Positions 12,693 through 54,700 of a DNA stretch of 64,000 nt are shown piece by piece. The stretch comes from a virus. The stretch lies in the UHGV virus genome UHGV-0211740; one strand, given 5' to 3'. The notes below the pieces were generated by a model, which was not told where the DNA came from, searched no databases, and saw only the letters and a list, made by a program, of their open reading frames with translations. Made by a program: the position numbers and the translations under genes. Numbering within the stretch: the stretch's first letter is position 1; every line of letters begins with the position of its first letter.

Positions 12693-13091
12693 TTACTGAA
12701 CAGAACGCGGAGCTGGGAAGGATAACTCTTCTAAAGAGAAGATTTCATTTCCTACCACCCAAGTTGCTGGATCATCTGGATCAACAGGTTGGATAATCAT
12801 TACCTCATCAACCTTGCACACACGTTTCCCACCTATGGTAGCGTCAGCCACTAACATACGCGGCTCTTCAGAAATGCACAGGTAGCCACCTCGGCCCACT
12901 GTTCCTTCTACAGGATCCTGCCCTTTGACAACGATGAATACCTTTTCTCCTGTGGCGATATTACTTTGCACACGGACAGTTTGACCAACTTTAGAGGTAC
13001 CTACCTTGGTGGCTTCAAACATTAAATCCCGAATTACTGTTGCATAGTTGCCGGAAACTTTCTTACCTTCTTTGGTGATCTCAATCTTCAT
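12693..13091 (-). CDS. hypothetical protein
   Basis: 132-aa ORF. Confidence 0.45.
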   Translation of the reverse strand: MKIEITKEGKKVSGNYATVIRDLMFEATKVGTSKVGQTVRVQSNIATGEKVFIVVKGQDPVEGTVGRGGYLCISEEPRMLVADATIGGKRVCKVDEVMIIQPVDPDDPATWVVGNEIFSLEELSFPAPRSVQ

Positions 13092-13360
13092 AATTTAGGC
13101 TCCTTAAATGAATCTATGTAGTCAATTAAATCCCAAGCATCGCGATGGGCTGTCAGAGGATATACTTCTCCGAGAGGGATCATAGCGGCAAGTCTATCAA
13201 AAACCCAGTCTGGACGCAACATTTTATGGTGATATTCCCACTCACCTTCTACAGACTTTTTCTGAGTGATCAGGATCTCTGTGTAGTGTTTAGCCTGTCT
13301 TGAGTAGATTGAAAATGACTTGTACATAAATGGCCCCTCTTGTTGAAAACAAGAATACAT
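13088..13360 (-). CDS. hypothetical protein
   Basis: 90-aa ORF. Confidence 0.4.
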   Translation of the reverse strand: MYSCFQQEGPFMYKSFSIYSRQAKHYTEILITQKKSVEGEWEYHHKMLRPDWVFDRLAAMIPLGEVYPLTAHRDAWDLIDYIDSFKEPKL

Positions 13361-13362
13361 AA

Positions 13363-13677
13363 CTACCAGGTCACTGTCAAGTAGGCAACTGTGTTATTTT
13401 TCTCTGGCGATATGCCAACAACATCCACTTGCAGACCCCCTGCCCTTAAATCTCCGACGATGTGTGGGAAGTAATCAGAGAGATGTGATGGAAGATTTAT
13501 CGAAAATCCGCACCCCAGAAAGCCTGCTAACGCTTTATTTTGTATCTCCCCTACAATCGCATCGTAAATAGCGTTAAGCTCGTCAGGAAGCGTCACAGGG
13601 CGTTTTAGCGCTAACCGGTGTAATTTGTCCTTAGCACTCATTTTCATTTCAGATCTACCTCTGGTGGTGCCAACCAC
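13363..13677 (-). CDS. hypothetical protein
   Basis: 104-aa ORF. Confidence 0.4.
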   Translation of the reverse strand: MVGTTRGRSEMKMSAKDKLHRLALKRPVTLPDELNAIYDAIVGEIQNKALAGFLGCGFSINLPSHLSDYFPHIVGDLRAGGLQVDVVGISPEKNNTVAYLTVTW

Positions 13678-14177
13678 ATAAATGGCGGCAAATCTAAGCG
13701 GTTTTTCTTATCCCACACAAAATATGCATATGCTTGCCCGTCAGTTCTGCCATTGGACTGGAATGATGGGCGCTTAGATATTGTAATCACTGTGGTAGGG
13801 GCATTTTCAAGCCACCACTCAAAACGTGCTTTACTTTCCAGGAAGTTGAGACGCAAAAGCATAATAACTACGTCAGCATCTTTCAACGCCTTTTCTACAA
13901 ACTCACGGGCCAGGCTGTAGGGAGGGTTGGTTATAATGCAGTCAACATGGTTGTATTCTGTATTCAAGTAGTCCACACCTTCTTGAATCTCTCCCCATGC
14001 AGATCCTAACGGCATACGGGAGTAGAATACCCCGTTAACACTGTTTCGGCACGGCTCCAGATAAGTCCAGTTCTCCGGGAAATCAATTAAGTTATATAGG
14101 CCTTCTGCACACCAATCTGGTGTAACATATTCATCATAAGCATTACGTTGTTCGTCAGGTTTTCTAGCGCAAGTCAT
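13644..14177 (-). CDS. phage-type DNA N6-adenine methyltransferase (small Dam-like)
   Basis: 177 aa with catalytic motif IV ITNPPY; size and motif fit the small phage Dam family. Confidence 0.65.
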   Translation of the reverse strand: MTCARKPDEQRNAYDEYVTPDWCAEGLYNLIDFPENWTYLEPCRNSVNGVFYSRMPLGSAWGEIQEGVDYLNTEYNHVDCIITNPPYSLAREFVEKALKDADVVIMLLRLNFLESKARFEWWLENAPTTVITISKRPSFQSNGRTDGQAYAYFVWDKKNRLDLPPFMWLAPPEVDLK

Positions 14178-14228
14178 GCAAATCTCCAGATCATAAAAGC
14201 CCTCCGAAGAGGGCTTTAAGATTAATAT

Positions 14229-15275
14229 TTAAGCTTCTTCGACAATTCCTGCACCCAGGATTTTTTCATTAAGCTCTTTTGCGGTTTTAATAATATTATC
14301 CACCAGACGCTTACGGGTCTTGTCTTTCACCTGAACCTCTTCGCCACCGTTCAGAGTAGTCTTCAATTGAGACAGAATATCCTGAAGTTCAACGACAGAG
14401 AATCGCTGCAGATCTTCTGAGGTAATCTCGCCGAGAGCGATCCGGACGGTCTCACCACTTTCCATCTGCAGATTCAGGAACACGGTGTGAACATCATCTT
14501 TCACACCATTTGCTTTTGCAGACTCGACAGCATGAACCAGTTCGTCCAGGGAGGTGCACTGGTGAATCTCTGGCAGACCTGCTTCACCTAGTACCCCTTC
14601 ATCACCTTTTGCCAGAAGCTTTTTCGGTTTCTGCCCGTTCTGGATACGCTGAATGTTTTCATCGTCCAGAATGATAGCTCCAGTTCTAGATGCCAGCTCC
14701 TCTCCGTCCAACCATACTTCTCCACCAGCTGTGATGGAGGCGATCTCATCTTCTGTCAGCACTCCACCGTAGTATTTTTCGATCAGACGTTCGAAACGTT
14801 TTTTCCAGTAGCTGACCTGAGTATTCATGTTCACACCGTTGCCATAAGTGCCACCTTGGTAGTAGTGGAACATAAATTCAGTATCTGGAGCCACAGTGCG
14901 TTCTTTGCAACCTAGCCATAAGATTGTTCCAGCAGAGCAGCACATCCCTTCAGCATGTACAACAACGCTTGCCTGAGACTCGCGGAATGCCTGCAGATAT
15001 GCCATTGCAATGTGCACGCAACCACCAGGGCTATTGATGATCACCCGAATGCTTTCTTCCGGCTGAGCCATACGGATCGTCTGCAGACGAGACATATGGT
15101 CTTGTAGGTCTTCCAAGTCGTCGATATAAAGAACGTGGTCAACAACAGGTGTTGGGTAGCTGTATGTTTCCATAATACCACCCGGCATACCAAACATTTT
15201 ATTACTCATCGGTTCGAAGCCGTTCTGTTTTTCTTTCATGCCGTGTACCATGGTGCTGCGAGGTGTTAAATTCAT
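14229..15275 (-). CDS. ClpP-like serine protease with C-terminal helical extension (possible prohead protease-scaffold fusion)
   Basis: INSPGG and MCCSAGT serine motif plus MFHYY histidine region match the ClpP/S14 fold; about 150 aa helical C-terminal tail. Confidence 0.7.
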   Translation of the reverse strand: MNLTPRSTMVHGMKEKQNGFEPMSNKMFGMPGGIMETYSYPTPVVDHVLYIDDLEDLQDHMSRLQTIRMAQPEESIRVIINSPGGCVHIAMAYLQAFRESQASVVVHAEGMCCSAGTILWLGCKERTVAPDTEFMFHYYQGGTYGNGVNMNTQVSYWKKRFERLIEKYYGGVLTEDEIASITAGGEVWLDGEELASRTGAIILDDENIQRIQNGQKPKKLLAKGDEGVLGEAGLPEIHQCTSLDELVHAVESAKANGVKDDVHTVFLNLQMESGETVRIALGEITSEDLQRFSVVELQDILSQLKTTLNGGEEVQVKDKTRKRLVDNIIKTAKELNEKILGAGIVEEA

Positions 15276-15336
15276 GTGAGGTCCTTAATGTTGGAAAATT
15301 AAAAGCGATTTATTTAAACCTGATTCTCATTTGCCT

Positions 15337-15648
15337 TTATTTGGCAATTACCATGGAATACTTGCAATTGTCAGAAGCATCACAGGTCAACGATTGCCAG
15401 TCTACCACATACCACGTGTCATTGTCAACAATTACTTTATCACCTGTTCTGTAAAAGGTGTTGCTTTCAATAACACGAGACTCAGTGAAGAATCGGTGTC
15501 TTCGCTCACGTAGTAGAGCCAAGTTGATTATATTACCACCGCTGTCCTTAATCCACACATTCTTGTATCCTTTATTTGCCAAAATTGTCTCGCCGTTATA
15601 GACAAACAGGCAGTAGATTTTATTCAATCTCTCTTGTATCGTAGCCAT
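15337..15648 (-). CDS. hypothetical protein
   Basis: 103-aa ORF. Confidence 0.4.
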   Translation of the reverse strand: MATIQERLNKIYCLFVYNGETILANKGYKNVWIKDSGGNIINLALLRERRHRFFTESRVIESNTFYRTGDKVIVDNDTWYVVDWQSLTCDASDNCKYSMVIAK

Positions 15649-15749
15649 ACTGTTCTTCTCCTCGTTTTGTCAGGCAATAATACCTAAAGCTTGTCTGTTT
15701 GTCAACAAGTGTTTTAGATATTCAAGGGTGGAATAACCACCCTTATATG

Positions 15750-16538
15750 TTACTCGGAAACAGGAGTCCAAATACGGTTTGCACGGTCCTCAATAAGATT
15801 GAGTGCAATCTGACGACCCAGCCCAGAACGAACAACATCGTCAGGACTATCAAAGCTAATCATCCCAACTTCAGGATCTGGATGGCGTGTAAAGAAATCT
15901 GTCACCCATGCAAGGCCAGATTTACCAGGGATGTCTCGTTGGCTATTGTCCCCCATAATTACAAGGGTGGCCTGATCGGAGATCCTTGTGATAATTGACA
16001 ACATTTCTTCAGGGTTAGTTTGCTGTGCCTCGTCAATTAGGACAAAGCATCGTTCATCGAAACTACGACCACGAATACTTTCAACTTCACAAATCTCTAT
16101 ACGGCTGTTCTGACCGTCTCCCAGCATTGCTGCAAAAGCACCTTTGCCAACACGACGACAAATCGTGTCCATCATACTCCGGAGATAGGGCCACAGTTTC
16201 TGCATTGCATTCCCGGGTTTAAATCCTGAAGTCTTTCCTGTCTGAACGTAAGGGCGTGCAACAATGATCTTATCAATCTCGTTTTTACGTAACAGATCTC
16301 CTGCATAGGCAGATGCCATAAATGTCTTACCAGACCCAAACACACCGTTTACGATAATAATCTTACGTGACCCTAAATAATCAAGATACTTTTGCTGCTT
16401 CTTATTCATCGGTCGGAGAGCTGGAGCTGTGTGCTCTCGTTCTTCAGAAAATTTCTCAGCAGCCTTACGCAAACGATCAGATTTACGAGCCTCTCTGGCT
16501 TCATCACGCATGCGTTTTGTTTCTTTAGCTCGACCCAT
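15750..16538 (-). CDS. phoH: PhoH-like ATPase
   Basis: Walker A GVFGSGKT and LIDEAQ motifs; 262 aa. Confidence 0.8.
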   Translation of the reverse strand: MGRAKETKRMRDEAREARKSDRLRKAAEKFSEEREHTAPALRPMNKKQQKYLDYLGSRKIIIVNGVFGSGKTFMASAYAGDLLRKNEIDKIIVARPYVQTGKTSGFKPGNAMQKLWPYLRSMMDTICRRVGKGAFAAMLGDGQNSRIEICEVESIRGRSFDERCFVLIDEAQQTNPEEMLSIITRISDQATLVIMGDNSQRDIPGKSGLAWVTDFFTRHPDPEVGMISFDSPDDVVRSGLGRQIALNLIEDRANRIWTPVSE

Positions 16539-16576
16539 GGTGGGACTCCTTTCAGATTGAGATGTGTCTGGAACTT

Positions 16577-16927
16577 TTATTGCAACAGTTTTTCGATAGC
16601 CGCTTCCATGCTGCTTGCAACAGCCTGAACTCGGATATTCATCTCTTCTTGGTGGATCAGTTCCTTAAGCTCTTTAACGGTAAATTCTTTAGAGAAACCT
16701 TCCACCATAATATTGTGTAAGGCTTCTTGCGTGTCTACTTGCAAGAACTTTTCCAGTTTGTTGGCAGAGGCTTCTAAATCGGCCCGAATACGAGGGTCAT
16801 CTGTGCGATTCAGCATTAGGCGTAAGCCATCGAGATTAGTAGAGATAGCGTCAGCATGTTGAGTAACTAACCGTGGCAAAATGAGATCTACAAACTTATT
16901 AGCCAAATCAATACGTTCTTGTGTCAC
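16577..16927 (-). CDS. hypothetical protein
   Basis: 116-aa ORF. Confidence 0.4.
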   Translation of the reverse strand: MTQERIDLANKFVDLILPRLVTQHADAISTNLDGLRLMLNRTDDPRIRADLEASANKLEKFLQVDTQEALHNIMVEGFSKEFTVKELKELIHQEEMNIRVQAVASSMEAAIEKLLQ

Positions 16928-17068
16928 TGTTGTACCCCCTCTTCATCCTCATGATGTTTCTTTTCACGCTTGTGTTTTTTCTTAAGCTCAAGCGCAATCT
17001 CTTTTTTGTACGCCTTCTTCAAGGCCTTTTTAGCCATTTGGCACCTCCTCTGCTTTCATTTTACGATA

Positions 17069-17098
17069 ATTATATCTGTCTAAACAAAGCTTTGTCAA
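17069..17098 (-). promoter_or_regulatory. putative sigma70-like promoter (minus strand)
   Basis: Minus-strand TTGACA (plus-strand TGTCAA) and TATAAT-like element separated by about 18 bp, upstream of 16577..16927. Confidence 0.35.
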
Positions 17099-43936: not shown

Positions 43937-44026
43937 AGAGAGTAGGGAGCATGGTGCTCAAGCGGTCTTGAAAACCGTCCCGTTGAGATATCCTCGATGA
44001 TGGTTCGATTCCATTACTCTCTGCCA
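43937..44026 (+). tRNA. tRNA-Ser (anticodon TGA)
   Basis: Perfect 7-bp acceptor AGAGAGT/ACTCTCT, anticodon loop CTTGAAA, long variable arm, T-loop TTCGATT, CCA encoded. Confidence 0.75.
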
Positions 44027-44124
44027 GATCGTGGATCATGAAATTAAGCGAGCGCCGGAAGCAGAACCGGATTAACAAATGTTACAGTCGTCATCGCCGA
44101 CTAGCAGCATGATCCACATAATAT

Positions 44125-44221
44125 GCTAGGTAAGCCCTTTGGCAAGGGCGAGGATTTTTAATCCTGAAAATAGACGAAGCAGTCGTTGAATACATAGGTG
44201 GTTCGATTCCATCGCCTAGCA
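44125..44221 (+). tRNA. atypical 97-nt tRNA-like gene (possible pseudo-tRNA or non-canonical tRNA)
   Basis: Perfect acceptor stem GCTAGGT/GCCTAGC and canonical T-arm GGTGGTTCGATTCCATC, but no clean 5-bp anticodon stem with 7-nt loop (closest is AGGA/TCCT with loop TTTTTAA) plus about 30 nt of extra internal sequence; no encoded CCA. Confidence 0.35.
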
Positions 44222-44228
44222 CCTTTTT

Positions 44229-44304
44229 GCTGATGTAGCACAATTGGTAGTGCAATTGATTTGTAATCAATAGGTTGCAGGTTCAAGTCCTGCCATCAGC
44301 ACCA
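44229..44304 (+). tRNA. tRNA-Thr (anticodon TGT)
   Basis: Acceptor GCTGATG/CATCAGC, anticodon stem-loop ATTGA-TTTGTAA-TCAAT, T-loop GGTTCAAGTCC, CCA encoded. Confidence 0.8.
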
Positions 44305-44305
44305 T

Positions 44306-44380
44306 GTCCCTGTAGCTGGAAGGTTCAAGCAAGCGACTCATAATCGCCAGACGGTGGTTCAATTCCACCCAGGGCCACCA
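44306..44380 (+). tRNA. tRNA-Met or Ile2 (anticodon CAT)
   Basis: Acceptor GTCCCTG/CAGGGCC with one mismatch, anticodon loop CTCATAA, T-arm GGTGGTTCAATTCCACC, CCA encoded. Confidence 0.7.
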
Positions 44381-44391
44381 AATTATAAATA

Positions 44392-44468
44392 CTCCGCGTA
44401 GCTCAGCTTGGTAGAGCGCCTGATTTGGGATCAGGAGGTCGAGTGTTCGAATCACTCCGTGGAGACCA
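44392..44468 (+). tRNA. tRNA-Pro (anticodon TGG)
   Basis: C1-G72 acceptor CTCCGCG/CGTGGAG, D-arm AGCTCAGCTTGGTAGAGC, anticodon loop TTTGGGA, T-loop GTTCGAATC, CCA encoded. Confidence 0.8.
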
Positions 44469-44511
44469 ATTTCACTATACCTTAAACATATATACAAAAG
44501 GAATCCTAAAA

Positions 44512-44781
44512 ATGTATACACTTAAAATTGTAGAACGTGTAAATCCAACCCATACTGTAGATTTTCGTGACGATTTCAACCCTCTTGCTGTAAATCTTCG
44601 AGAGTCGTATCATGAACTAAGCTGCGATGCAGTAGTGGTCTTCTTTGAAGACAACTCTGAAGGGGCAGTAGCTTGTGTTGTCGATAGCGAGCAGAAGTTT
44701 TATATTTACAGAGATGTGGATGCTTACTTGATGAATGAGAATGCAGTTACTGTTAGAATCATCCACCGAGTGCCTCGATAA
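44512..44781 (+). CDS. hypothetical protein
   Basis: Start refined to the internal ATG (MYTLKIV) immediately after tRNA-Pro; 89 aa. Confidence 0.45.
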   Translation: MYTLKIVERVNPTHTVDFRDDFNPLAVNLRESYHELSCDAVVVFFEDNSEGAVACVVDSEQKFYIYRDVDAYLMNENAVTVRIIHRVPR

Positions 44782-44886
44782 GTATTAGTCTCCTTTTAGT
44801 TAGTTTAGATCTATTTAGGTTACTCAATTTTAACCCGCCCCGTTAGCTGTATGGCTGCGGGGTTTTTTCGTTTCTGGAGCCGTAAA

Positions 44887-45285
44887 ATGATTTCAGTTTT
44901 AACATGGCTGGGCAGGTATAAAGGGGTCATAAAAGGTTTAGTTTTTGCAGCAACTCTTGGTATAGCCTATCTTGGTGCCGTATATTGGTTTAATTCTAAG
45001 CTTGACACTGCTTACCAGGAGGGTGTGACAGCAACAGAGTTGAAGTGGGAACGGATCCTTGATCAGCAACAAAAGCAAGCTGACAGGATTAAAATGGGCC
45101 ATGCAGAGGAGGTTAAAAACCTTGAAAAATCCCTTTCTGACCTGCAGGATAAATTAAGTATAGCTGAGAAGGCAGGTAAAGAAAAGCAGATTATTTACCT
45201 CCAATCGCCTGAAGGTAAGAAGTCAACACTTCCTGATCAGCTTATAGAGATTTATAATGAGAGTATCAATCAGGAGGGTCGATGA
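44887..45285 (+). CDS. putative i-spanin (Rz-like)
   Basis: Start refined downstream of a terminator-like hairpin; N-terminal TM VIKGLVFAATLGIAYLGAVYWF followed by a coiled-coil periplasmic domain. Confidence 0.5.
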   Translation: MISVLTWLGRYKGVIKGLVFAATLGIAYLGAVYWFNSKLDTAYQEGVTATELKWERILDQQQKQADRIKMGHAEEVKNLEKSLSDLQDKLSIAEKAGKEKQIIYLQSPEGKKSTLPDQLIEIYNESINQEGR

Positions 45286-45569
45286 GAGTTGCTGCACTAC
45301 TTATTATGTGCTTGTTATTATGTGGGTGTACAACCAGCGTTGAGAGAGAATACAAGATTGACCCTCCGGATGTAGGGAGGTTGATTGTTAAACCACCAGA
45401 GGGTGCCATGAAACCACCTGCTAAAGCCGTGCCTTTGAAGAAGGGTGCCCCGGATGCGGTGAATTCTGGCATTATGAGGGATAATAACCTATCTTGCAGT
45501 AATGATAGAGCTAAATTAATCATTTTGCAAGACTATATTAGAACACTGTTTCCAAAGGAGAGAGGTTAA
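45282..45569 (+). CDS. putative o-spanin (Rz1-like lipoprotein)
   Basis: Lipobox LLLCGC near the N-terminus, proline-rich mature region, overlaps i-spanin stop. Confidence 0.55.
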   Translation: MRVAALLIMCLLLCGCTTSVEREYKIDPPDVGRLIVKPPEGAMKPPAKAVPLKKGAPDAVNSGIMRDNNLSCSNDRAKLIILQDYIRTLFPKERG

Positions 45570-45994
45570 TGTCTAAGATTTACGGACCGTGTTCTGAAAA
45601 GCAGAAGATGATCCTGGAAAATGATGCAGATATTTTGGTAATTGGCGGGGCTGCAGGATCTGGCAAGTCATTCCTCTTGCAGCTAATGCCGCTTAAAATT
45701 ATTGATGACCCGCACAGCTCTGTGGTTATGTTCCGAAGAACAACCCCACAGTTGGAAGGTGAGGGGGGACTATGGCCTAAAGCAGTAGCTATTTATAGTG
45801 ATCTGCCAGAAAACATTAAGCCAAAGTTTAGAGAGAAGGATCATAAGTTCATTTTTCCACGGTTTGATCCGAGCACTGGCAAGTGGGACAGGAGCAAAAA
45901 GGGAGCTGTTGTAAAATACTGCCACATGGAATATGTCCAAGATAAGCTTAACCATCAGGGTTTGGAATACACCATGGTTTGCTTCGATGAGGGT
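45569..45994 (+). CDS. terL: terminase large subunit, exon 1 (ATPase N-terminal part)
   Basis: Walker A GGAAGSGKS and Walker B MVCFDE; reading frame terminates at a TAA that begins the intron. Confidence 0.75.
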
Positions 45995-46877
45995 TAATTT
46001 GTAGCTCTCGTAAAACCTCCCTAATTGCGGGGAAATCTTTATTATTGACACCACCAATCTGTCATGGTAACATGATAGAGGCTTCGAAGAGAGATCGAAG
46101 GTATGGTAACAGTGTGTTAATTTAGATAATCCGCAGCGAAGCATCCGAGAGGATGAACGTTCAACGACTAGTCGAAAGACGTAGAATCAAGCGATTCGAA
46201 ACGGGAGGGTGCATGTGTAATACTAAAAAATGTATGGATTGCCAAAGAGTTCTACCTATTGATGATTTCTTTTTATCATCTAAGAGCAAGGATGGATACT
46301 CAGGTACATGCAAGGAATGCTATATGTACTACAGGAAGGGTGGATCTCGTAAAAACAAAAATATGGTTAAGAGAGATGACGCAGCATTGTTTATTCAAGA
46401 CTTGCTGAAGAAAGGTGAACTTTTTGAATGCAAATCTTGTCATAAAAGTATGCTCGCTGATAGTTTTTACACAAAACGTGACTATGGCAAAGTATATCTG
46501 GTTACGAACAGGTGTAAGATGTGTGAAAAGTTTTATCAGATTGAGAAGAAATTTCACATAACAAAAGATGAATACTATCGTCTACTCTCAGATCAAGATC
46601 ATAAGTGTGCCATTTGTAGAATATCTCTTGATGAGTATAGGACGCAAGGGTACAGAGATTTCTTTTGTGTTGATCATGACCATAAAACTGGTGCTGTAAG
46701 AGGGTTGCTTTGTGATAAATGCAACAGAGCTTTAGGCTTCTTCCAAGAAGATGAGGAAACTATTCTTAAAGCGGCAGAATATTTACACATTCATAAGATA
46801 TAGTCTGGTCTGCATGGAGACATGCAGCTGCCTGAAAATGGCGGGGCAAGACTAGCGACCTTGCCCGAACATAAACG
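45995..46877 (+). mobile_element. group I self-splicing intron carrying a homing endonuclease ORF (3-prime boundary approximate)
   Basis: Core elements in canonical order: P AATTGCGGGGAAA (~46030), Q AATCCGCAGC (46128), R GTTCAACGACTAGTC (46159), S AAGATATAGTCTGG (46795); internal guide GCTCTC pairs with exon end GAGGGT. Confidence 0.65.
46153..46803 (+). CDS. intron-encoded homing endonuclease, Endonuclease VII/HNH-like
   Basis: Cys-rich N-terminus and CVDHDHKTGAVRGLLCDKCN Endo VII core; ORF lies between intron R and S elements; true start may be an internal ATG. Confidence 0.65.
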   Translation: MNVQRLVERRRIKRFETGGCMCNTKKCMDCQRVLPIDDFFLSSKSKDGYSGTCKECYMYYRKGGSRKNKNMVKRDDAALFIQDLLKKGELFECKSCHKSMLADSFYTKRDYGKVYLVTNRCKMCEKFYQIEKKFHITKDEYYRLLSDQDHKCAICRISLDEYRTQGYRDFFCVDHDHKTGAVRGLLCDKCNRALGFFQEDEETILKAAEYLHIHKI

Positions 46878-47999
46878 ACACAATTCGAATGGGAGCAGAT
46901 AGACTATCTGATGTCTCGTTTGCGATCTCAGTCAAAGTATCCATCAAGAATGGTTATCAGCTGTAACCCCGACTCAGAGCATATGCTTGCCAAACTGGTT
47001 AGATGGTGGCTGGACGATGAAGGGTATCCAGATCCGGAGAAATGTGGCAAGAAAAGATATTTTATCCGGCGTGACGGTGAATTTATTTGGGGAGACTCTA
47101 AAGAGGAGTTGATAGAGAAATACACCACAGTTAATGGACTGGGTGTGGAGATCAAGCCAAGACCGTTGTCATTCTCGTTTATAGGCGCAACAATATTCGA
47201 TAATCCTGTCTGCTTGAGAGACAACCCAGAATACCTTGCTTTCCTTGAAGGTCTGCCAGAACTGGAAAAAGCTCAGCTTCTTCATGGTAACTGGTTTGCC
47301 AAACCTGAGGGTGCGAACTACTTTCAAAGATCTTTCCTTCGTGATGCCGACAGCGTACCTTTAGGGTCTGTGTCTTGCAGGGCATGGGATAAAGCTGGAA
47401 CTGAAAGAACTTCAGGTAATAAATTCCCTGACTTTACTGCCAGTGTCAAGGTAAGTAAAGATAGTGATGGATTCTACTACCTGTCAGGAGATTATTGTCC
47501 GGAGAACGTGGATGACGGGAGATATTCCACAGGTCTGGAAGGCAAGTTCTGTAAAAAGGCTGGCGAACGAGATGTGATCATCAGGAAACAGGCGCAGTTT
47601 GATGGTGATGATTGTATAATCGTATTCTCTGTGGACCCCGGTCAGGCAGGTAAGAGTGAGTTCTTAACCTCATCCAGATCCTTGCTCGCCGAAGGTTTCA
47701 GGGTTGAAGAAGACCCAATGCCTTCCAACAAATCTAAACTGACAAGGTTCTCACCTTTTGCCAATCTTGCCCAACAAGGGATGGTGAGGATTGTAAAATC
47801 CAGTTTCCATCCTGATACTTTGGAAGCATTTCTGACTGAACTTGAAAAGTTCAACGGGGAAAGATCAACATTTAACAGAAAAGACGACTGGGCCGACTGT
47901 GTAGCATCTGCGATTAATTTCCTGGAGAAAGAGGAGGTAGCACTGCCTTGTGTGATCCCATCAATATCATCACCTTCTATGTTTAAGCGTTTTATCTAA
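46878..47999 (+). CDS. terL: terminase large subunit, exon 2 (ATPase C-motif and nuclease domain); exon start approximate
   Basis: In-frame continuation with no stops from 46875; contains VISCNP coupling-motif-like segment and C-terminal nuclease-like acidic residues; possible splice acceptors after G at 46877, 46892, 46895 or 46898. Confidence 0.65.
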   Translation, partial: TQFEWEQIDYLMSRLRSQSKYPSRMVISCNPDSEHMLAKLVRWWLDDEGYPDPEKCGKKRYFIRRDGEFIWGDSKEELIEKYTTVNGLGVEIKPRPLSFSFIGATIFDNPVCLRDNPEYLAFLEGLPELEKAQLLHGNWFAKPEGANYFQRSFLRDADSVPLGSVSCRAWDKAGTERTSGNKFPDFTASVKVSKDSDGFYYLSGDYCPENVDDGRYSTGLEGKFCKKAGERDVIIRKQAQFDGDDCIIVFSVDPGQAGKSEFLTSSRSLLAEGFRVEEDPMPSNKSKLTRFSPFANLAQQGMVRIVKSSFHPDTLEAFLTELEKFNGERSTFNRKDDWADCVASAINFLEKEEVALPCVIPSISSPSMFKRFI

Positions 48000-48099
48000 G
48001 TGTTGCCAATCTTGATCAGATGTGGTACAATAGAGTAATTGGAGATACTAGCCCTCTGACGAGGGCTATTTTGTTATACTGTTTTGAGGGGTAAAGCTT

Positions 48100-49656
48100 G
48101 TGTCCAAAAAGAACCGCAGGAAACACAACGCCACAGCCAAAACTGTGAATAAATCTGGGAACGCAGGCGCACCAACTCATAATGTTCGTATGAGTGAGAT
48201 CGGTTCTGGCGCACTTTCCCAAATTATGGCAGAATCGCAATCTATGATGGTTGAGGAATTGCGTTGGCCTCAGCTGATTGCCACAGTGGAGACTATGAAA
48301 TGTGATTCCACAGTTGCTACTGCCTTAGATACAAAATATGTTTTCATCACGAAAGCATTTAATGATTTTAAGATCCTTTATAATGTTAAAAGTGAAGACT
48401 CTAAGAAAGCTGCCGAGCTTATAGAGTATTCTTTGCATAATTTGGCAAACCAACAAACTCTTCGAGATATTGCAAGAAGCGCAGCTACCTTTAACGAGTA
48501 TGGTTTTTCACTGTTTGAGAAAGTATACCGCAGAGAGAAAGAAGGTAAATACGCCGGGATGCTTCTTATTGATAAAATTGCATTCCGACCTCAGGCCAGT
48601 CTGTCCAGATCAGAGCCGTTTGTCTTTGACAAGAACAGTAGAACACTGACAGGTATTTATCAGTCACCTAATGCATTTCTAAACAATCAGAATGCACGCT
48701 GGGCTGGACCTCTTGCTGCAATGCCTTCAAAAGGCTTTAATGAGCCTGAAATTTTCATTCCTGCTAAAAAGCTTATGCTCATGACCCTGTCAGGAACAGA
48801 ATCTAATCCTGCAGGTGTGTCACCGATGATAGGTTGCTACAGATCTTTCCGTGAGAAAGTTCTGATTGAAAACCTTGAGGTTGTTGGCTGCTCCAAAGAC
48901 CTTGGTGGTGTGCTTGAGCTGAAAATTCCTTCCAATATTTTGAATAAGGCCAGTATTGACCCGAATTCGATGGAAGGGAGAATGGTTGCAGATCTGATGC
49001 TTGACGCAGCAAACGCCCACAGTGGTGAGCAAAGTTTCTTTATACTTCCGTCTGATAGGGATAAATCTGGTAAAGAGCTTTACTCTATGACCCTGAAGGG
49101 GGTTGATGGTATTGGTAAGCAGTATTCCACTAAAGATCTGATTGATGCCCGTAAGAAGGCGATTCTTGACCGTTTCGGTGCTGGCTTTATTAACCTCGGT
49201 AACGATAACGTTGGATCCTTCTCTCTGTCTGAGTCAAAACAATCTATCCATGGTCATTTTGTTCAGCGTGATATAGATATTATCACCGAGGCCTTCAATA
49301 AAGATCTTATTCCACAGCTTCTGGCATTGAATGGTATCATCCTTGAAGATGATGATATGCCTAAACTGAAACCCGGTCTGATTGAAGAAGTGGACATGGA
49401 GAGCTTCTCCAAGTTTGTCCAGAGGATCGGTGCTGTAGGTTACTTGCCAAAAACTCCTGCAGTAATTAATAAGATTCTTGAAGTAGGCGGGTTTGATGAA
49501 AGATTTGACGAGGACATGGATCAGGAAGAGCTGATGAAGCTCTTGGGCCAGGATATCAGCAGGGCTGGTGATGGAATGGCTGCAGGATCCACTGGAAACG
49601 GCACTTCTAAGATGTCATCAACCAGAGATAATTCCGTATCCAACATGGAAAATTAA
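48100..49656 (+). CDS. portal protein
   Basis: 518-aa ORF (GTG start) immediately downstream of terminase; size and position typical of portal. Confidence 0.65.
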   Translation: MSKKNRRKHNATAKTVNKSGNAGAPTHNVRMSEIGSGALSQIMAESQSMMVEELRWPQLIATVETMKCDSTVATALDTKYVFITKAFNDFKILYNVKSEDSKKAAELIEYSLHNLANQQTLRDIARSAATFNEYGFSLFEKVYRREKEGKYAGMLLIDKIAFRPQASLSRSEPFVFDKNSRTLTGIYQSPNAFLNNQNARWAGPLAAMPSKGFNEPEIFIPAKKLMLMTLSGTESNPAGVSPMIGCYRSFREKVLIENLEVVGCSKDLGGVLELKIPSNILNKASIDPNSMEGRMVADLMLDAANAHSGEQSFFILPSDRDKSGKELYSMTLKGVDGIGKQYSTKDLIDARKKAILDRFGAGFINLGNDNVGSFSLSESKQSIHGHFVQRDIDIITEAFNKDLIPQLLALNGIILEDDDMPKLKPGLIEEVDMESFSKFVQRIGAVGYLPKTPAVINKILEVGGFDERFDEDMDQEELMKLLGQDISRAGDGMAAGSTGNGTSKMSSTRDNSVSNMEN

Positions 49657-49724
49657 AAAATTATCAACACAGGGGGTTGCAAAACCTCCTTTGGCGTGAT
49701 AAAATAATCCACATGGGGAATAAG

Positions 49725-50144
49725 ATGCCACAGGAAGAAATGATTTCCTACGAAATCATCTACGAACCTGACACTAAAGATGCTCACGGTGAGTGGATGA
49801 GTAAAGACACCATCAAAAAGGCTAAAGACAACTGGGACGCAGCATACGCCGCAGGACTGGTTTCTGAAAACCTCTTTCACTTGACTTCTACAGATGCTTT
49901 CACTATTGAAAAAACGTGGATTCAAGAAGAGTTTGATGTTGTAGTAATTGGCACTGAGCAGGTCATCAAGGCTGGCTCTTGGGTTGCTAAAGTTAAATAC
50001 AATAATCCTGAGTTATGGGAAGCTAAGAAGGCTGGCATTGTTGGTGGCCTAAGTATTCAGGCAACTGGTAATGTTGATGAAGAAACTGGAGAGATCACCA
50101 ACGTAAATTTCGGGATCAGTGTTGTAGAAGAGGGCAATGAGTAA
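49725..50144 (+). CDS. head-module protein of unknown function
   Basis: Start refined to MPQEEM after a GGGG RBS; located between portal and scaffold. Confidence 0.4.
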   Translation: MPQEEMISYEIIYEPDTKDAHGEWMSKDTIKKAKDNWDAAYAAGLVSENLFHLTSTDAFTIEKTWIQEEFDVVVIGTEQVIKAGSWVAKVKYNNPELWEAKKAGIVGGLSIQATGNVDEETGEITNVNFGISVVEEGNE

Positions 50145-51124
50145 TGTCTGAAAAAACAATCACTATTAAAGAGAAAGGGATTGCCCTGTGCCATAAGGCG
50201 CAAGGCTATAGCGCTAACAATCGACCTGTATCTCTTTTAATGAAGAGCGATCTTCAGCCTGAGCAGTTGACAGAGGATATTGTTAAGGCTCTTCGCCAAG
50301 TCACTGTGGAGCTTAGTTTTGAAGAATACCTGCGTCGTTTCTTCGATATGTGGTATGACGATGCTAAGGCACTGGCTCACCTGCTCGGGTTCGAGATTGA
50401 GGAAGAAGCTTGGGCAAAAGAACACCCAGATTGGGAGTGGGCGCAGGCTGATGCAGAGGCTTGTGTGCAGTGGTTAGAAGAACGTTGTGACAACGTAACC
50501 ATTCACAAAGCTGCTAAAGAAGGTAAAGATTTAAGTATTGTTGACCAATACACTCTGTTAAAAACCCAACAAGTTTTTGAGCAGATGACCGCTGATCTCT
50601 TCGATGAAGAAGGGAAACTTATTAAAGCGGCACAGGAAACCACAGAAGAGGTTGTTACTGATGCTGTGGACAATGTTGATAAATCCGCAAATACCGAGGA
50701 GAATCCGGTGGAAGACGTAACCAAGTCTCAAGAGTACCTGGACCTGCTGAAACAGTTCGAAGAACTGAAGGCTACCAATGAAAAAGCTGAAGAAATCATC
50801 AAGGCTCAGGTAGAAGTTGAAAAAGCTAAAATGCTGGAAAAAGCTCAAGCGTTAAGCTTCGCTACTGAAGAAGATCACACAACTCTGGTCGAATTCATGC
50901 TGGACAAAGCTAATGCTTCTGTTGTTGCATTGCTGGAAAAAGCCCAAGCTCGTATTGCTGAACTGGAAGCTGAAGTTGAAAAAGCTAAAGATGAGTTCGC
51001 AACTACCGAGCAAGGCAAAGATGGTGATGTCGTAGTAGATGACATTGCTAAATCTGCTGAAGATATTATTGCTGAAAACGTCGCTAAAGCTCTGGCTCGT
51101 GCACGTAAAGAATCTAATAAATAA
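50144..51124 (+). CDS. putative scaffolding protein
   Basis: 326 aa, highly acidic, long coiled-coil stretch (AELEAEVEKAKDEF); position between portal and capsid genes. Confidence 0.5.
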   Translation: MSEKTITIKEKGIALCHKAQGYSANNRPVSLLMKSDLQPEQLTEDIVKALRQVTVELSFEEYLRRFFDMWYDDAKALAHLLGFEIEEEAWAKEHPDWEWAQADAEACVQWLEERCDNVTIHKAAKEGKDLSIVDQYTLLKTQQVFEQMTADLFDEEGKLIKAAQETTEEVVTDAVDNVDKSANTEENPVEDVTKSQEYLDLLKQFEELKATNEKAEEIIKAQVEVEKAKMLEKAQALSFATEEDHTTLVEFMLDKANASVVALLEKAQARIAELEAEVEKAKDEFATTEQGKDGDVVVDDIAKSAEDIIAENVAKALARARKESNK

Positions 51125-51142
51125 TTTGCGTAATAGGGGAAA

Positions 51143-51520
51143 ATGATGATCACCACTCAATATTCTGATATCGTGCTCGGCAAAGTAGATGCAAGCGATG
51201 CAGGTTTCAACTTTAAAGAGATTGAAATTACCCTTACTGCTGATCACGTTGCTGGCGCAGTAGTTACCAAAACTGGCACTCTGGCTAATCAAGATGGCAC
51301 AGATACCTTTGGTGTACTGGTTGACCGCGCTCTTCTGCCTGACGATTCTGGTAAAGTTAATCTGGCAGAGCCTCTGAAAGTTGGCGAGAAGTATAAACTG
51401 GTTGTTGCTGTTCGTGGCGTTACTTTCGCTAAAAAACATCTGAAAGTGGCTGGCGGTACGGCTGCACCTGCTGCAGTTCTGGAAGCTCTCGAAGCCAAAG
51501 GCAACAAAGTTCAGGAATAA
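51143..51520 (+). CDS. putative head decoration protein
   Basis: 125 aa directly upstream of the major capsid gene, as for lambda gpD; host-optimised codon usage. Confidence 0.45.
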   Translation: MMITTQYSDIVLGKVDASDAGFNFKEIEITLTADHVAGAVVTKTGTLANQDGTDTFGVLVDRALLPDDSGKVNLAEPLKVGEKYKLVVAVRGVTFAKKHLKVAGGTAAPAAVLEALEAKGNKVQE

Positions 51521-51555
51521 TCCTAGATCTTTGGGAAACAAAATTTTAAAGTTAT

Positions 51556-52569
51556 TTGGAGAAAATAATGCGTAAAGATGATTTTGGTATTGTTGATTTA
51601 GGTGCTACTCTTGAACTGGTTCCGCGCCAATATCGCCTGATTACTGGTATGGATCTGTTTGAAACCCATCTCGGCACCTCAACAATTGCACAGATCGAAC
51701 GTGTTGATGAGGTGGTTGGTGATATTGCCGCTCGTCGTCGTGGTGGTGAACGTAACTACGTTGATAGCGAACGTTCACAGATCAAAAACCTGAACATCCC
51801 GTTCTTCCCACTGGATAAGGGAATCACTGCTGCGGACGTTCAGAACTTCCGTCGCTACTTCACTCCGGATGCACCGAAAACTGTGCAAGACGTGGTTACT
51901 CGTGTAGTTCGTCGTATTCGTCTGAGCCACGAAACCTTGCGTGAAAAAGCTCTTTTTGCTGCAGTTCTGGGTAAATCCTATGCACCTGGTGATGCAACCT
52001 GTCAGTATGACTATTACAAACTGTGGGGCGTTTCCCAGAAATCTATCGAAATCGATCCTAAAAATGCAGCACAGGACCCGATGGAAGTAATCGAAGATGC
52101 ACGTCTGCACATTGCTCTGCAGGCTGGTGACAACGCTGGTGCTTACAACATCATCGCGCTGTGCTCTCCGAAATTCTTCTCTGCACTGGTTCATCATCCG
52201 CTGGTAGAGCTGGCTTACACCTACTACAGCTCTTCTCAGGAACCGCTGCGTCGTCGTCTGGGTGCAGGTGGCGAACAGAGCATTTACCGTGTGTTTGAAC
52301 ACAAAGGCATGACCTTCATCGAAGACATCTCTGGCAACATTCCGGACGGTGAGGCTCGCCTGATGCCTATGGGTATTGACCAGATGTTCCAGCTGCACTT
52401 TGCTCCTGCTGACACTGTGGAAGATGCAAATACCCCAGCTCAAGAACTGTATATGTGGTATAAACACTCTGCCTACCTGAGAGAACAGAAAATCGAATCT
52501 GAAACCTCTATGCTGGCAGTTAACACCCGTCCAGAGCTGGTTGTTAAAGCAACTCTGAAAAGTGAATAA
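51556..52569 (+). CDS. major capsid protein
   Basis: 337 aa, highest GC and strongest codon bias in the window, followed by a strong terminator; position in head module. Confidence 0.6.
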   Translation: MEKIMRKDDFGIVDLGATLELVPRQYRLITGMDLFETHLGTSTIAQIERVDEVVGDIAARRRGGERNYVDSERSQIKNLNIPFFPLDKGITAADVQNFRRYFTPDAPKTVQDVVTRVVRRIRLSHETLREKALFAAVLGKSYAPGDATCQYDYYKLWGVSQKSIEIDPKNAAQDPMEVIEDARLHIALQAGDNAGAYNIIALCSPKFFSALVHHPLVELAYTYYSSSQEPLRRRLGAGGEQSIYRVFEHKGMTFIEDISGNIPDGEARLMPMGIDQMFQLHFAPADTVEDANTPAQELYMWYKHSAYLREQKIESETSMLAVNTRPELVVKATLKSE

Positions 52570-52593
52570 TCACTAAGGTGATTCATCCCATAT

Positions 52594-52624
52594 GGGGAGG
52601 GGGTTCTCCCCTCCCCTTTTTATT
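52594..52624 (+). terminator. rho-independent terminator
   Basis: GGGGAGGGGG-TTCT-CCCCTCCCC hairpin followed by TTTTTATTT. Confidence 0.6.
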
Positions 52625-52649
52625 TATTAGGGTTTAACAGGAGTGTCCC

Positions 52650-53492
52650 GTGAAGAGAGCCGTATATCCAGTCGAGTATGATCCTCTATTAAGAGTTTTC
52701 AATAACCAGTTAAGTTTTTATCAATTTTTAGCACAATATAACCCAGAAATCAATGTTGGTTTATCAGCCCTGCTGCCACCAACAGAATTCGTTATTGGCA
52801 GTGTTCATTACCCGTGCAGAACAATTGTAGACTTCTTCAAGAAGATTGCAAAACATACGGGCCTGCCAATCGATACTGGTATTTCAACTATCCGTATGGG
52901 TGTTATTCTTCTGTTCTTCACAGAGAACCTTGATGAAAGCACTTTAACACTGCAAAGCGGTGATGTCAATATCACACTCACCCCGTCAGTCTTTAAAGAA
53001 GTAGATGCTGCTTTCAAGGTTTCCGTGGCAGAAGGTTATCTGTGGGATCCTGAAGGGATGCCTAAAAAAGTGACCATAAACGATGAGCAATGCGATGTTG
53101 TTTATGCAGCTGATACCCAAACTTTCACCATTGAGTGGCCTAAGAAACGTTCTCAGGTTGTAAATCTTGGTTTGACCTCTACAGTGGCACCGGAACCAGC
53201 TCCACCTGTGCCGCCTGTAGGTCCTACTGAACCTGGTGGTGGTGAAGAATCCCAAGGTCCGACTGTACCGGAGGAAGGCACTGAGCAGGATCCTGAACAG
53301 GCACAAGAATCAAGATCTTCTCGTAGTGATGTTGATGCCGTGCTACAGCAGGCCGCAGCTCTTAACAACGAAGATGACAAAAGTGGTTCAAAAGATGCAC
53401 TCCAAACCTTCGCCAAAGAGCACGGTGTTACCTTAAGTAAGGCAAAAACTTTCCAAAATATGATGAAAGATTTTGAGGCTGCACTGGCATAA
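52650..53492 (+). CDS. hypothetical structural protein
   Basis: 280 aa with Pro/Glu-rich linker; head-tail joining region. Confidence 0.4.
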   Translation: MKRAVYPVEYDPLLRVFNNQLSFYQFLAQYNPEINVGLSALLPPTEFVIGSVHYPCRTIVDFFKKIAKHTGLPIDTGISTIRMGVILLFFTENLDESTLTLQSGDVNITLTPSVFKEVDAAFKVSVAEGYLWDPEGMPKKVTINDEQCDVVYAADTQTFTIEWPKKRSQVVNLGLTSTVAPEPAPPVPPVGPTEPGGGEESQGPTVPEEGTEQDPEQAQESRSSRSDVDAVLQQAAALNNEDDKSGSKDALQTFAKEHGVTLSKAKTFQNMMKDFEAALA

Positions 53493-53551
53493 TTTTGTTA
53501 AGGCCCCTTCCAAATCAGGAATGGGGCTTTATTTTTATGAGGTATTTTCAA

Positions 53552-54172
53552 ATGGCATGGTATGAAGATGAAGAGATTATCCCGTCCCCTCCTAACCATG
53601 ATGGTGTAGTCGATACCCCAGAAGATCCACCAAAAGAAGATCCTGTGCCTCCAGAACCTGATCCGGACCAACCTCTTATTGATATTATGAGGTTATTGCT
53701 TGGCAATGTTGATGAGGAAACACTACCCGATGAGGTAATTAAAACATTCCTCGACATGGAGAAGCTGAAACTAAATTACCCGGCAAACCCTGATAAGCTA
53801 CCTCTGCTTAAGTACAATGTGCTTGTGCAGCTTGTGCGGTGGCTGATGATGCAAGAAGTGTCCAGCGGTAATGCAAGTATAACTTCCCGTCTGGAAAAAA
53901 TAGGTGATGAGACCATAGAGATTCGTGGTGGATCTTCCTACGCCCAGTGGAAAGATTTCCTTGATTGGCTGCTGGCACACCCCGACTATGTAGATTCTGA
54001 TCTGGATGCTTATAGCAGAATGATCATTATCGGTGGTGTTCGTGTAGACGAAGGAGTTCGGGTTAAATTTAATGAAAACAGTAACGGCCCGTTCGATGTT
54101 CAGGGGATTACACCTATTAGTGGTCTAAATAATCAACCTCCTCGCCACCCAAGACGCAAACGCAGTTTTTAA
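53552..54172 (+). CDS. hypothetical structural protein
   Basis: Start refined to the internal ATG (MAWYEDEE) downstream of a hairpin. Confidence 0.4.
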   Translation: MAWYEDEEIIPSPPNHDGVVDTPEDPPKEDPVPPEPDPDQPLIDIMRLLLGNVDEETLPDEVIKTFLDMEKLKLNYPANPDKLPLLKYNVLVQLVRWLMMQEVSSGNASITSRLEKIGDETIEIRGGSSYAQWKDFLDWLLAHPDYVDSDLDAYSRMIIIGGVRVDEGVRVKFNENSNGPFDVQGITPISGLNNQPPRHPRRKRSF

Positions 54173-54691: not shown

Positions 54692-54700
54692 GGGGGTTGA

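Follow-up and report, generated by a model that had tools for sequence, protein, structure and literature searches.

A gene for a ClpP-like serine peptidase in an rV5-like (Vequintavirus) E. coli myophage raises the question of whether it supplies the phage's prohead protease from a distance or serves some other purpose. Within the 64,000-nt stretch of phage DNA analyzed here (the window), the gene lies in a minus-strand nucleotide-metabolism block together with PhoH, NrdD/NrdG, and a DNA methyltransferase, 33 to 36 kb from the portal and capsid genes, which are on the opposite strand. An earlier note, made from the sequence alone, had correctly described this placement (as about 35 kb from the head genes) and had left two readings standing, a remotely encoded prohead protease or a protease with a nonstructural role. 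We argue that the gene likely encodes a nonstructural accessory ClpP-fold serine peptidase and not a capsid-maturation enzyme, with head maturation carried out by an XkdF-type protease.

The gene itself is already known. Its counterparts are rV5 gp122 and the BASEL "ClpP-like protease," the ClpP-like annotation dates from 2013, and its product is 97 to 99.7% identical to Vequintavirus proteins carrying the annotation "ClpP-like protease." We consider rV5 gp122, bas54_0171, bas55_0174, and PHROG 5410 to be the same gene, with the same neighbors (methyltransferase, 103-aa open reading frame, PhoH, and NrdG/NrdD), promoter, and terminator; bas54_0171 is taken as the ortholog because synteny is shared, the gene lengths are the same, and the protein is 97% identical to those of sister BASEL phages. 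There is no substantive difference between the rV5 and BASEL entries and the gene described here, and their annotation was made by homology. We found no functional study of a phage "ClpP-like protease" in the literature searched. The gene and the parts of its product are as follows.

14229-15275, minus strand: ClpP-like serine peptidase gene, 348 aa (open reading frame and translation)
15141-15275, minus strand: N-terminal region, aa 1-45, predicted to be disordered (pLDDT <50 for aa 1-42)
14664-15140, minus strand: ClpP-fold core, aa 46-204 (AlphaFold pLDDT 85-93)
14934-14936, minus strand: catalytic Ser114, invariant in family alignments
14865-14867, minus strand: catalytic His137, invariant in family alignments
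14718-14720, minus strand: Glu186, where ClpP has the triad Asp
14490-14663, minus strand: post-core helix, linker, and one helix (family alignments and AlphaFold)
14232-14489, minus strand: family-specific C-terminal domain, aa 263-348 (pLDDT 78 in a tail-only model)

The reading frame is preceded by a good ribosome-binding site (AAGGA, 6 nt, ATG), and the ClpP motifs that the earlier note had picked out are present at aa 80-85 (INSPGG), aa 111-117 (MCCSAGT), and aa 135-139 (MFHYY). The protein clears the Pfam CLP_protease cut-off of 20 bits with a score of 49 (7.5e-13), and PHROG 5410, the long form of a phage "ATP-dependent protease," matches it over its full length including the tail (E 2.4e-153, with residues 24-344 of 348 aligned to profile positions 4-322 of 323). 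The AlphaFold model of the core has a ClpP/crotonase-like fold in which the handle helix is present, and a Foldseek comparison with solved ClpPs returned an E value of ∼3e-9 and a TM score of ∼0.7 over 159 to 175 aligned columns. Family alignments also reveal a conserved motif, FG-x-PG ... YSYP, in the N-terminal region. Neither the family nor a wider clade shows any change at Ser114, His137, or the INSPGG oxyanion motif. The residue at the third triad position varies: this protein has Glu, most close relatives have Gln, and members of the wider clade have Asp or Glu. Departure from Asp at this position could be taken to mean that the protein is catalytically inactive, a ClpP-like pseudo-enzyme that serves as a structural decoy, but the invariance of the Ser, the His, and the oxyanion motif, together with the Asp or Glu retained at the third position by the remaining members, makes such a decoy extremely improbable.

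The transcriptional setting of this peptidase can be read from its immediate surroundings, which comprise the following features.

15750-16538, minus strand: PhoH-like P-loop ATPase gene (PHROG 170, 5e-75; NCBIfam PhoH, 4e-40, below that model's curated cut-off)
15677-15705, minus strand: sigma-70-type promoter, TTGACA-17-TATTAT, equivalent to rV5 P121 (rV5 Table S4)
15337-15648, minus strand: 103-aa open reading frame (PHROG 5456), upstream of and cotranscribed with the ClpP-like gene
14193-14214, minus strand: intrinsic terminator, GCCCTC-TTCG-GAGGGC-TTTTAT, equivalent to rV5 t122 (rV5 Table S4)
13644-14177, minus strand: N6-adenine DNA methyltransferase-like gene (PHROG 799, 2.5e-66), a conserved downstream neighbor

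The promoter serves the 103-aa open reading frame and the ClpP-like gene, and the terminator starts 15 nt past the ClpP-like stop codon, so that the layout of this unit is identical to that of rV5 P121 and t122. The methyltransferase adjoins the ClpP-like gene in 14 of 15 long-form loci, and the PhoH-like gene is a conserved upstream neighbor of ClpP-like genes in many phages. The metabolism block is early/middle. In the phage ICP1, the nucleotide-metabolism range gp176-gp211, whose last member is the ClpP-like homologue gp211, contains the genes peaking at 12 min, and structural genes peak at 16 min. A dedicated sigma-70 promoter and terminator, residence in the metabolism block, and linkage to PhoH in distant phages all support the nonstructural role that the earlier note had offered as its second option. 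A PADLOC search yielded nothing meaningful that would link the gene to defense or anti-defense.

The case for a remote prohead protease had drawn on the apparent lack of any protease between the portal and scaffold genes, and here the earlier note was mistaken. The head module contains the following.

48020-48032: late-promoter motif upstream of the portal gene, matching rV5 P064
48100-49656, plus strand: portal protein gene (PHROG 113, Pfam Portal_Mu)
49725-50144, plus strand: Peptidase_S78_2 (XkdF-type) protease gene, 139 aa (Pfam score 65 bits, cut-off 24; E 6e-18)
50144-51124, plus strand: candidate scaffold protein gene, 326 aa; the protein is acidic and its C-terminal half coiled-coil-like
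51556-52569, plus strand: major capsid protein gene (Phage_cap_E, lambda gpE-like; Pfam 3.4e-40)

The 139-aa protein belongs to the same family as the XkdF-type prohead proteases (PF14550, Peptidase_S78_2), small His/Ser enzymes that have no sequence relation to the ClpP-like protein, and it also matches the head maturation protease family PHROG 3017 (9e-14). It carries the motifs DAHGEW (with the His) and GGLSIQ (with the Ser); its residues D23, H25, and S114 do not vary within the family, in which distant relatives are 60 to 78% identical. The gene sits between portal and scaffold, and its stop codon overlaps the scaffold ATG (TAATG). It corresponds to rV5 gp63 by gene order and to bas54_0006 of Bas54 by position and by gene length, the start codon having been picked so that the gene has the 420 nt annotated for it in Bas54 and L001. 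The scaffold candidate was likewise matched to the 325-aa rV5 gp62 by gene order and length. Judged by sequence, the 139-aa protein is the candidate head-maturation protease of this phage, forming with the scaffold gene a canonical protease-scaffold pair. This pair lies under the late-promoter motif of the structural module; the ClpP-like gene does not.

Published data on two relatives bear directly on the division of labor between these proteases. Mass spectrometry of rV5 virions did not find gp122 among the 19 proteins detected. This absence is by itself compatible with a prohead role, because maturation proteases often exit the capsid. Scaffold gp62 accounted for 2 spectra in the same virions, against 2030 for the capsid protein. 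The earlier note had looked to processed capsid N-termini as a sign of prohead protease action, but the rV5 capsid protein keeps its N-terminus, with the peptide R.KDEFGIVDLGATLDLVPR starting at residue 3. We also considered whether gp133, an unexpected abundant protein of rV5 virions, might be the ClpP-like protein, and it is not, the latter being gp122.

Transposon data for Bas54 (HIDEN-SEQ; bioRxiv 10.1101/2025.11.20.689424) speak to the requirement for each gene in phage production. The prohead protease gene was disrupted at 1 of 24 TA sites and the portal, scaffold, and capsid genes at none (0/84, 0/51, and 0/47, respectively), all four being classed as Essential. The ClpP-like gene was disrupted at 28 of 44 TA sites (64%), with ∼127 mean reads per site, and was classed as Intermediate; it is not required for producing infectious particles, as a ClpP-related head maturation protease would be. 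The PhoH gene, the small open reading frame (bas54_0172, equivalent to the 103-aa frame), and the methyltransferase gene were Non-essential in the same data set. That the ClpP-like gene was called Intermediate and not Non-essential indicates that it makes some contribution to fitness. Because an essential protease gene follows the portal gene, the ClpP-like protein is not a missing capsid-maturation protease.

The C-terminal tail had been described in the earlier note as a roughly 150-aa helical extension resembling those of prohead protease-scaffold fusions. An extension does exist, 144 aa long (aa 205-348) and following the core, but its likeness to a scaffold does not hold up: what follows the core is a linker and a small domain specific to the family. 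A conserved post-core helix (LLDxxNIxRxQxGQxP, aa 200-217) leads into a variable, low-confidence linker of 30 to 50 residues and a single helix (aa 243-255), and the terminal domain is modeled as a compact unit of a β-hairpin and two or three helices with conserved residues F292, E296, L297, R321, and L324. The tail-only model had no fold match in the PDB (best Foldseek E value, 0.29), and its single significant BFVD match is a 303-aa protein that may be a family member. An exhaustive profile search of 1.84 billion representative proteins recovered no tail relatives outside the ClpP-like family, its 8 matches being family members or fragments except for 2 repeat-protein artefacts. These two are a Cna-B surface protein and a fiber-like repeat protein. 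Among 701 six-frame open reading frames of the window the tail profile found only itself, with no similarity to the scaffold, and the tail alone matched only PHROG 5410 when searched against Pfam and PHROG. With no scaffold similarity, no PDB fold match, and matches confined to the family, we rejected a scaffold or capsid-targeting domain, and, for lack of an in-frame ATG with a Shine-Dalgarno sequence in the tail, also a nested Nu3-like product. Fusions of the lambda C/Nu3 type have a coiled-coil scaffold domain or a nested in-frame gene, neither of which is found in this tail, and unlike in those fusions the scaffold is here a separate gene of 326 aa.

Comparison with curated protein models places the ClpP-like protein nearer to phage head proteases than to cellular ClpP. 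Its best-scoring curated models are NF045542 ("head maturation protease, ClpP-related"; 62 bits) and NF045540 (54 bits), although it reaches the cut-off of neither (120 and 475, respectively), and several PHROG "head maturation protease" families match it as well (PHROG 1684 at 2e-23). The curated models of cellular ClpP are not passed either, with 33 bits against 309 for TIGR00493 and 41 against 228 for PRK12553. An evolutionary link to head proteases is plausible because the NF045542 score exceeds those of the cellular models and because of the PHROG head maturation matches. The NF045542 head proteases and the NF045540 proteins (ClpP-like protease-capsid or -scaffold fusions) share a phage origin with the ClpP-like protein, but, unlike theirs, its gene is outside the head module and is dispensable in Bas54.

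This relatedness also speaks for a reading in which the ClpP-like protein would enter the procapsid by way of its tail and digest the scaffold, alone or as a second maturation protease. The Intermediate call in Bas54 would be in keeping with such a role, and a C-terminal extension could in principle target the capsid. We nonetheless regard a remote prohead protease as very unlikely: the head module has an S78_2 protease gene, essential in Bas54, that is coupled to the one for the scaffold, the ClpP-like gene tolerates disruption at most of its TA sites and is transcribed from a sigma-70 promoter to its own terminator within the metabolism block, the NF045542 cut-off is missed, and the tail has neither scaffold similarity nor a nested start. 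In addition, none of the 11 other phage lineages examined has its ClpP-like gene within the head module, and ICP1 and the Rheinheimera Barba phages each possess a separate head-cluster protease. The remote encoding suggested in the earlier note is therefore contradicted by the protease-scaffold pair, by the essentiality data, and by the composition of rV5 virions.

If the ClpP-like protein is a nonstructural peptidase, one candidate mode of action is that of cellular ClpP (MEROPS S14, PF00574, TIGR00493), with which it has in common the fold, the handle helix, the catalytic Ser and His, and the motifs INSPGG and SAG. Its ring might then dock host ClpX or ClpA, or mix with host ClpP, and so redirect or block ATP-dependent proteolysis of host or phage proteins as an alternative core for host unfoldases, in line with the traditional annotation "ATP-dependent Clp protease subunit" and with a jumbo-phage survey (PMC7824862) that suggests host proteins as possible targets of phage ClpP. 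The surfaces needed for this are, however, altered. The hydrophobic apical pocket by which cellular ClpP receives the IGF/IGL loops of ClpX and ClpA is not kept: in a gap-free alignment, E. coli ClpP residues Y60, Y62, F82, I90, and M92 are replaced by R77, I79, E99, H107, and E109, and R77, E99, H107, and E109 are invariant in the ClpP-like family. The N-terminal axial loop and helix αA of cellular ClpP have no alignable counterpart, the triad Asp is Glu or Gln in the family, and the 144-aa tail is an addition. Scores against cellular ClpP models are 33 to 41 bits where the cut-offs are 228 to 308, only the broad Pfam domain model being passed, and clpX, clpA, and clpP go unmentioned in a Keio-collection screen done with LL12, a V5-like phage, which weighs weakly in the same direction. 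Overall, we find service as a core for host unfoldases distinctly unlikely.

Other phages provide a different perspective on the partners of this protein. The orphan ClpP-like proteins ICP1 gp211, Otagovirus phiPsa267_047, UAVern uav_123, and Curvibacter P26059A_0116 (PHROG 1827) are 30 to 38% identical to it in the core and are encoded in nucleotide-metabolism regions, not head modules, usually just downstream of PhoH. Many orphan phage ClpP-like proteins are merely 180 to 230 aa long; several also have C-terminal extensions, which align with the rV5-type tail only in Acinetobacter ABPH49. Linkage to PhoH was found in at least 8 of the 11 phage lineages examined, with PhoH upstream on the same strand in seven and adjacent to the ClpP-like gene in an eighth, the Rheinheimera Barba phages (Barba18A), for which the strand was not reported. 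The same-strand upstream position is seen in rV5-like phages, ICP1, Vibrio 277E43-1, Acinetobacter ABPH49, Otagovirus, UAVern, and Curvibacter P26059A. The PhoH and ClpP-like stop and start codons overlap by 8 nt in phiPsa267 and by 4 nt in UAVern. In IMG/VR, PhoH is upstream in 14 of 15 long-form loci and was not detectable with one seed in 65 short ClpP-like loci. Pakpunavirus, a T5-like Klebsiella phage, and a T4-like Vibrio phage lack the linkage.

This recurrent arrangement could mean that the ClpP-like protein and the PhoH-like ATPase act in one complex or pathway, for example in ATPase-coupled turnover of proteins or ribonucleoproteins, and the loss of canonical docking features would leave room for such a partner. 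Against this, a sigma-70 promoter and a hairpin stand between PhoH and the ClpP-like unit in the window, three lineages lack the linkage, PhoH is not an AAA+ unfoldase, and the linkage could reflect mere comembership in a metabolism module. We therefore hold a shared complex or pathway to be unlikely, and put forward only tentatively, as an improbable proposal, that the genes for the PhoH-like ATPase and the ClpP-like peptidase are a conserved phage pair with functionally coupled products.

Returning to the accessory peptidase that we favor, the ClpP-like protein would form ClpP-type rings that act within the infected cell in the early-to-middle phase, cutting peptides or proteins recruited to them. 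With the ClpX/ClpA docking pocket and the N-terminal loops lost, canonical use of the host unfoldases is improbable. The C-terminal domain would start where ClpP's own C-terminus meets the docking pocket, and, flexibly tethered there, it may act as a partner- or substrate-recruiting or regulatory module.

With an ordinary protease-scaffold pair present, and essential in Bas54, the puzzle of a protease-less head module dissolves. Orphan ClpP-like proteases are widespread in large virulent phages, and their function becomes more tractable through the lost ClpX/ClpA docking surfaces, the rV5-type C-terminal domain, and the repeated linkage to PhoH. The Vequintavirinae are targeted by a protease-sensing CBASS, and it therefore matters that two proteases are encoded; it is an improbable further possibility that the ClpP-like protease, and not the prohead protease, is the trigger sensed by CBASS EcCdnG. 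PhoH is among the commonest phage genes without a known role. If its coupling to the ClpP-like peptidase were true, phage PhoH would gain a concrete biochemical context, in which a non-AAA+ ATPase works with a ClpP-fold protease that has no canonical docking surface and carries its own recruiting domain.

By megablast, positions 13000-17000 and 44000-56000 of the window are 92-99% identical to sequences of more than 100 E. coli myophages of the Vequintavirus (rV5-like) type. Metabolism and replication genes occupy the minus-strand half, to ~40 kb, and the structural module the plus-strand half. Positions 13000-17000 are also ~92% identical to nineteen GenBank records that carry the name "Campylobacter phage", those listed being without annotation; their host label looks doubtful. 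An endonuclease VII/HNH-type ORF stands between the two parts of a split large terminase gene (45569-45997, 46153-46803 and 46911-47999, plus strand), the same intron/homing-endonuclease arrangement as has been reported for rV5 and as the Bas54 annotation shows.

The minus-strand ORF at 14229-15275 (348 aa) has a good ribosome-binding site. Residues 59-168 match Pfam CLP_protease (49 bits, cut-off 20), PHROG 5410 ("ATP-dependent protease") covers the full length (2.4e-153), and an AlphaFold2 model built from 41 family sequences places aa 46-200 in a confidently predicted ClpP core (pLDDT 85-93), which can be superposed on solved ClpPs (E ~3e-9, TM ~0.7) and is followed by 144 further residues. 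Given these matches and the extra residues in the model, the gene, motifs, C-terminal extension and location described in the earlier note are all real, and the gene was rightly recognised as ClpP-like. Neither Ser114 nor His137 varies within the family or across the wider clade; where ClpP has its triad Asp, the window protein has Glu, most close relatives have Gln, and the others have Asp or Glu.

The same note saw no obvious protease between portal and scaffold, leaving open a remotely encoded prohead protease, a puzzle that arose because an XkdF-type gene was overlooked in the head module:

48100-49656, plus strand: portal gene, with the XkdF-type ORF directly downstream
49725-50144, plus strand: XkdF-type protease gene
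50144-51124, plus strand: scaffold candidate

The ORF directly 3' of the portal gene matches Pfam Peptidase_S78_2, "putative phage serine protease XkdF" (65 bits, cut-off 24, E 6e-18), and PHROG 3017, "head maturation protease", and is named "putative serine protease" in one relative's annotation and "prohead protease" in BASEL. Its homologues in distant phages are 60-78% identical, and in none of them does the Asp/His (DAHGEW) or the Ser (GGxSI) change. We used the start at 49725 (139 aa), as in relatives, with which the TAA stop overlaps the start codon of the scaffold candidate (TAATG). In an alignment of the family with this protein (window 49677-50144, plus strand), many relatives have ~208 aa against 139 here, their conserved ~60-aa N-terminal extension (ADLPxS...QK...LKxAN...) being missing from the window phage. 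The next gene encodes the scaffold candidate (326 aa, acidic, C-terminal half coiled-coil-like), followed downstream by decoration and lambda-E-type capsid genes, and the late-promoter motif defined in rV5 (TGGTAAAATA-like) precedes the portal and is also present at other places in the structural module. The 280-aa ORF that immediately follows the capsid gene (52650-53492, plus strand) has a ~45-aa C-terminal stretch that matches PHROG 1051 (3e-7), the T4 Inh-like "minor head protein inhibitor of protease"; this ORF, whose Bas54 counterpart bas54_0010 is called Essential (bioRxiv 10.1101/2025.11.20.689424), could encode a protein that regulates the head protease or is cleaved by it.

Data from relatives likewise speak against a remote head protease. 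Shotgun mass spectrometry of rV5 virions identified 19 proteins, among which neither gp122, the rV5 name of the ClpP-like protein, nor gp63, the XkdF-type counterpart by gene order, appears, and the 325-aa scaffold candidate gp62 accounts for 2 spectra, the capsid protein for 2030. Capsid peptide R.KDEFGIVDLGATLDLVPR starts at residue 3 and coverage extends almost to the C-terminus; the rV5 capsid protein therefore has no cleaved N-terminal propeptide. The decisive data come from the transposon-insertion map of Bas54 (bioRxiv 10.1101/2025.11.20.689424), a Vequintavirinae phage whose genes agree with those of the window in order and length, and for which orthology was assigned by synteny, gene lengths and 97% identity to sister phages Bas50, Bas55, Bas56 and Bas57.

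Transposon insertions in Bas54 genes, as TA sites hit out of total, with the published call (bioRxiv 10.1101/2025.11.20.689424)
Portal: 0/84, Essential
Prohead protease bas54_0006: 1/24, Essential
Scaffold: 0/51, Essential
Decoration: 1/22, Essential
Capsid: 0/47, Essential
ClpP-like bas54_0171: 28/44 (mean ~127 reads/site), Intermediate
Methyltransferase: 33/34 (0.97), Non-essential
103-aa ORF: 25/27 (0.93), Non-essential
PhoH: 30/32 (0.94), Non-essential

If the phage had only one maturation protease, its gene should resemble bas54_0006 (1/24). The ClpP-like bas54_0171 is hit at 28/44 sites and has no conditional requirement in a clinical isolate (bioRxiv 10.1101/2025.11.20.689424). It is alone in its neighbourhood in having lowered saturation (0.64 versus 0.93-0.97 in its immediate neighbours).

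The transcription signals around the ClpP-like gene are as follows:

17069-17098, minus strand: sigma-70 promoter TTGACA-18-TATAAT (consensus 12/12), upstream of a 116-aa ORF (16577-16927) and the PhoH gene
15705-15677, minus strand: sigma-70-type promoter TTGACA-17-TATTAT, before the 103-aa ORF and then the ClpP-like gene
14214-14193, minus strand: GC-rich hairpin and T-run, 3' of the ClpP-like stop codon

The promoter at 15705-15677 and the terminator were likewise predicted by the rV5 authors, as P121 and t122, and from these motifs the 103-aa ORF and ClpP-like gene are predicted to be a discrete host-polymerase-class unit, not a late one. In ICP1, structural genes peak at 16 min and the capsid cluster has its own predicted protease, gp125.

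By tblastn, the full-length form occurs only in Vequintavirinae-like phages and the core alone (25-38% identity) in many large virulent phages; in none of 11 such lineages inspected is the gene part of a head module. PhoH precedes it in the same orientation in ICP1, Vibrio 277E43-1, Acinetobacter ABPH49, Otagovirus phiPsa267, Pseudomonas UAVern and Curvibacter P26059A, and it adjoins the gene in Rheinheimera Barba phages (strand not given in the source), which encode another peptidase between portal and capsid. The two genes are not neighbours in Pakpunavirus, a T5-like Klebsiella phage or a T4-like Vibrio phage. Among 15 IMG/VR long-form loci, PhoH lies ≤2 kb upstream in 14 and a methyltransferase immediately downstream in 14. 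The stop codon of one gene overlaps the start codon of the other in phiPsa267 (8 nt) and UAVern (4 nt), which suggests that the two are translationally coupled there. The same-strand pair recurs in phage records from several unrelated genera (L005, 4148-5513; L092, 4153-5492; L093, 3972-5549; L002, 4214-6912; L094, 3977-5954).

The protein falls outside both named families by the criteria tested, cellular ClpP and ClpP-related head maturation protease. The top NCBIfam model, "head maturation protease, ClpP-related", scores 62 bits (cut-off 120) and cellular ClpP models 33-41 bits (cut-offs 228-308); by these curated profiles it is therefore a member of a distinct phage clade in the ClpP superfamily, which may share ancestry with head proteases. 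Against authentic E. coli ClpP, aligned gap-free from the PGG to the SAG motif, residues Y60, Y62, F82, I90 and M92, which line the ClpX/ClpA docking pocket, correspond to R77, I79, E99, H107 and E109, four of the five being invariant and charged or polar in the family. Neither alignment nor model contains a counterpart of the ClpP N-terminal axial loop or helix alpha-A; residues 1-42 are predicted disordered and bear a different conserved motif.

The tail, which the first reading likened to a scaffold, comprises a conserved helix adjoining the core (LLDxxNIxRxQxGQxP), a linker that varies and is modelled with low confidence, and a predicted compact ~85-aa domain (beta-hairpin and two long helices) with conserved F292, E296, L297, R321 and L324. 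It resembles nothing else in the window, no other family in Pfam or PHROGs and nothing in the PDB; BFVD gave one significant match, an unnamed 303-aa protein, and among 1.84 billion representative proteins a profile of the tail retrieved family members only, plus two repeat artefacts. On these results, and with no nested in-frame start, the tail is not a scaffold domain. The short "F-T/S-V-x-E-L" motif that it shares with the 116-aa ORF at 16577-16927 (minus strand; hmmsearch E ~0.1) is probably chance. Since the C-terminus of ClpP ends beside the docking pocket, to which L189 belongs, we hypothesize that the tail would occupy or replace this surface and might serve recruitment or regulation.

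An accessory, non-structural ClpP-fold peptidase is the best-supported reading. Literature searches found no functional study of this clade. CBASS activated by proteolytic cleavage defends against Bas48-59, which are Vequintavirinae (bioRxiv 10.64898/2026.03.04.709575). This protease-sensing CBASS against Vequintavirinae is a lead, not a result, as are the linkage to PhoH and the loss of the docking surface.
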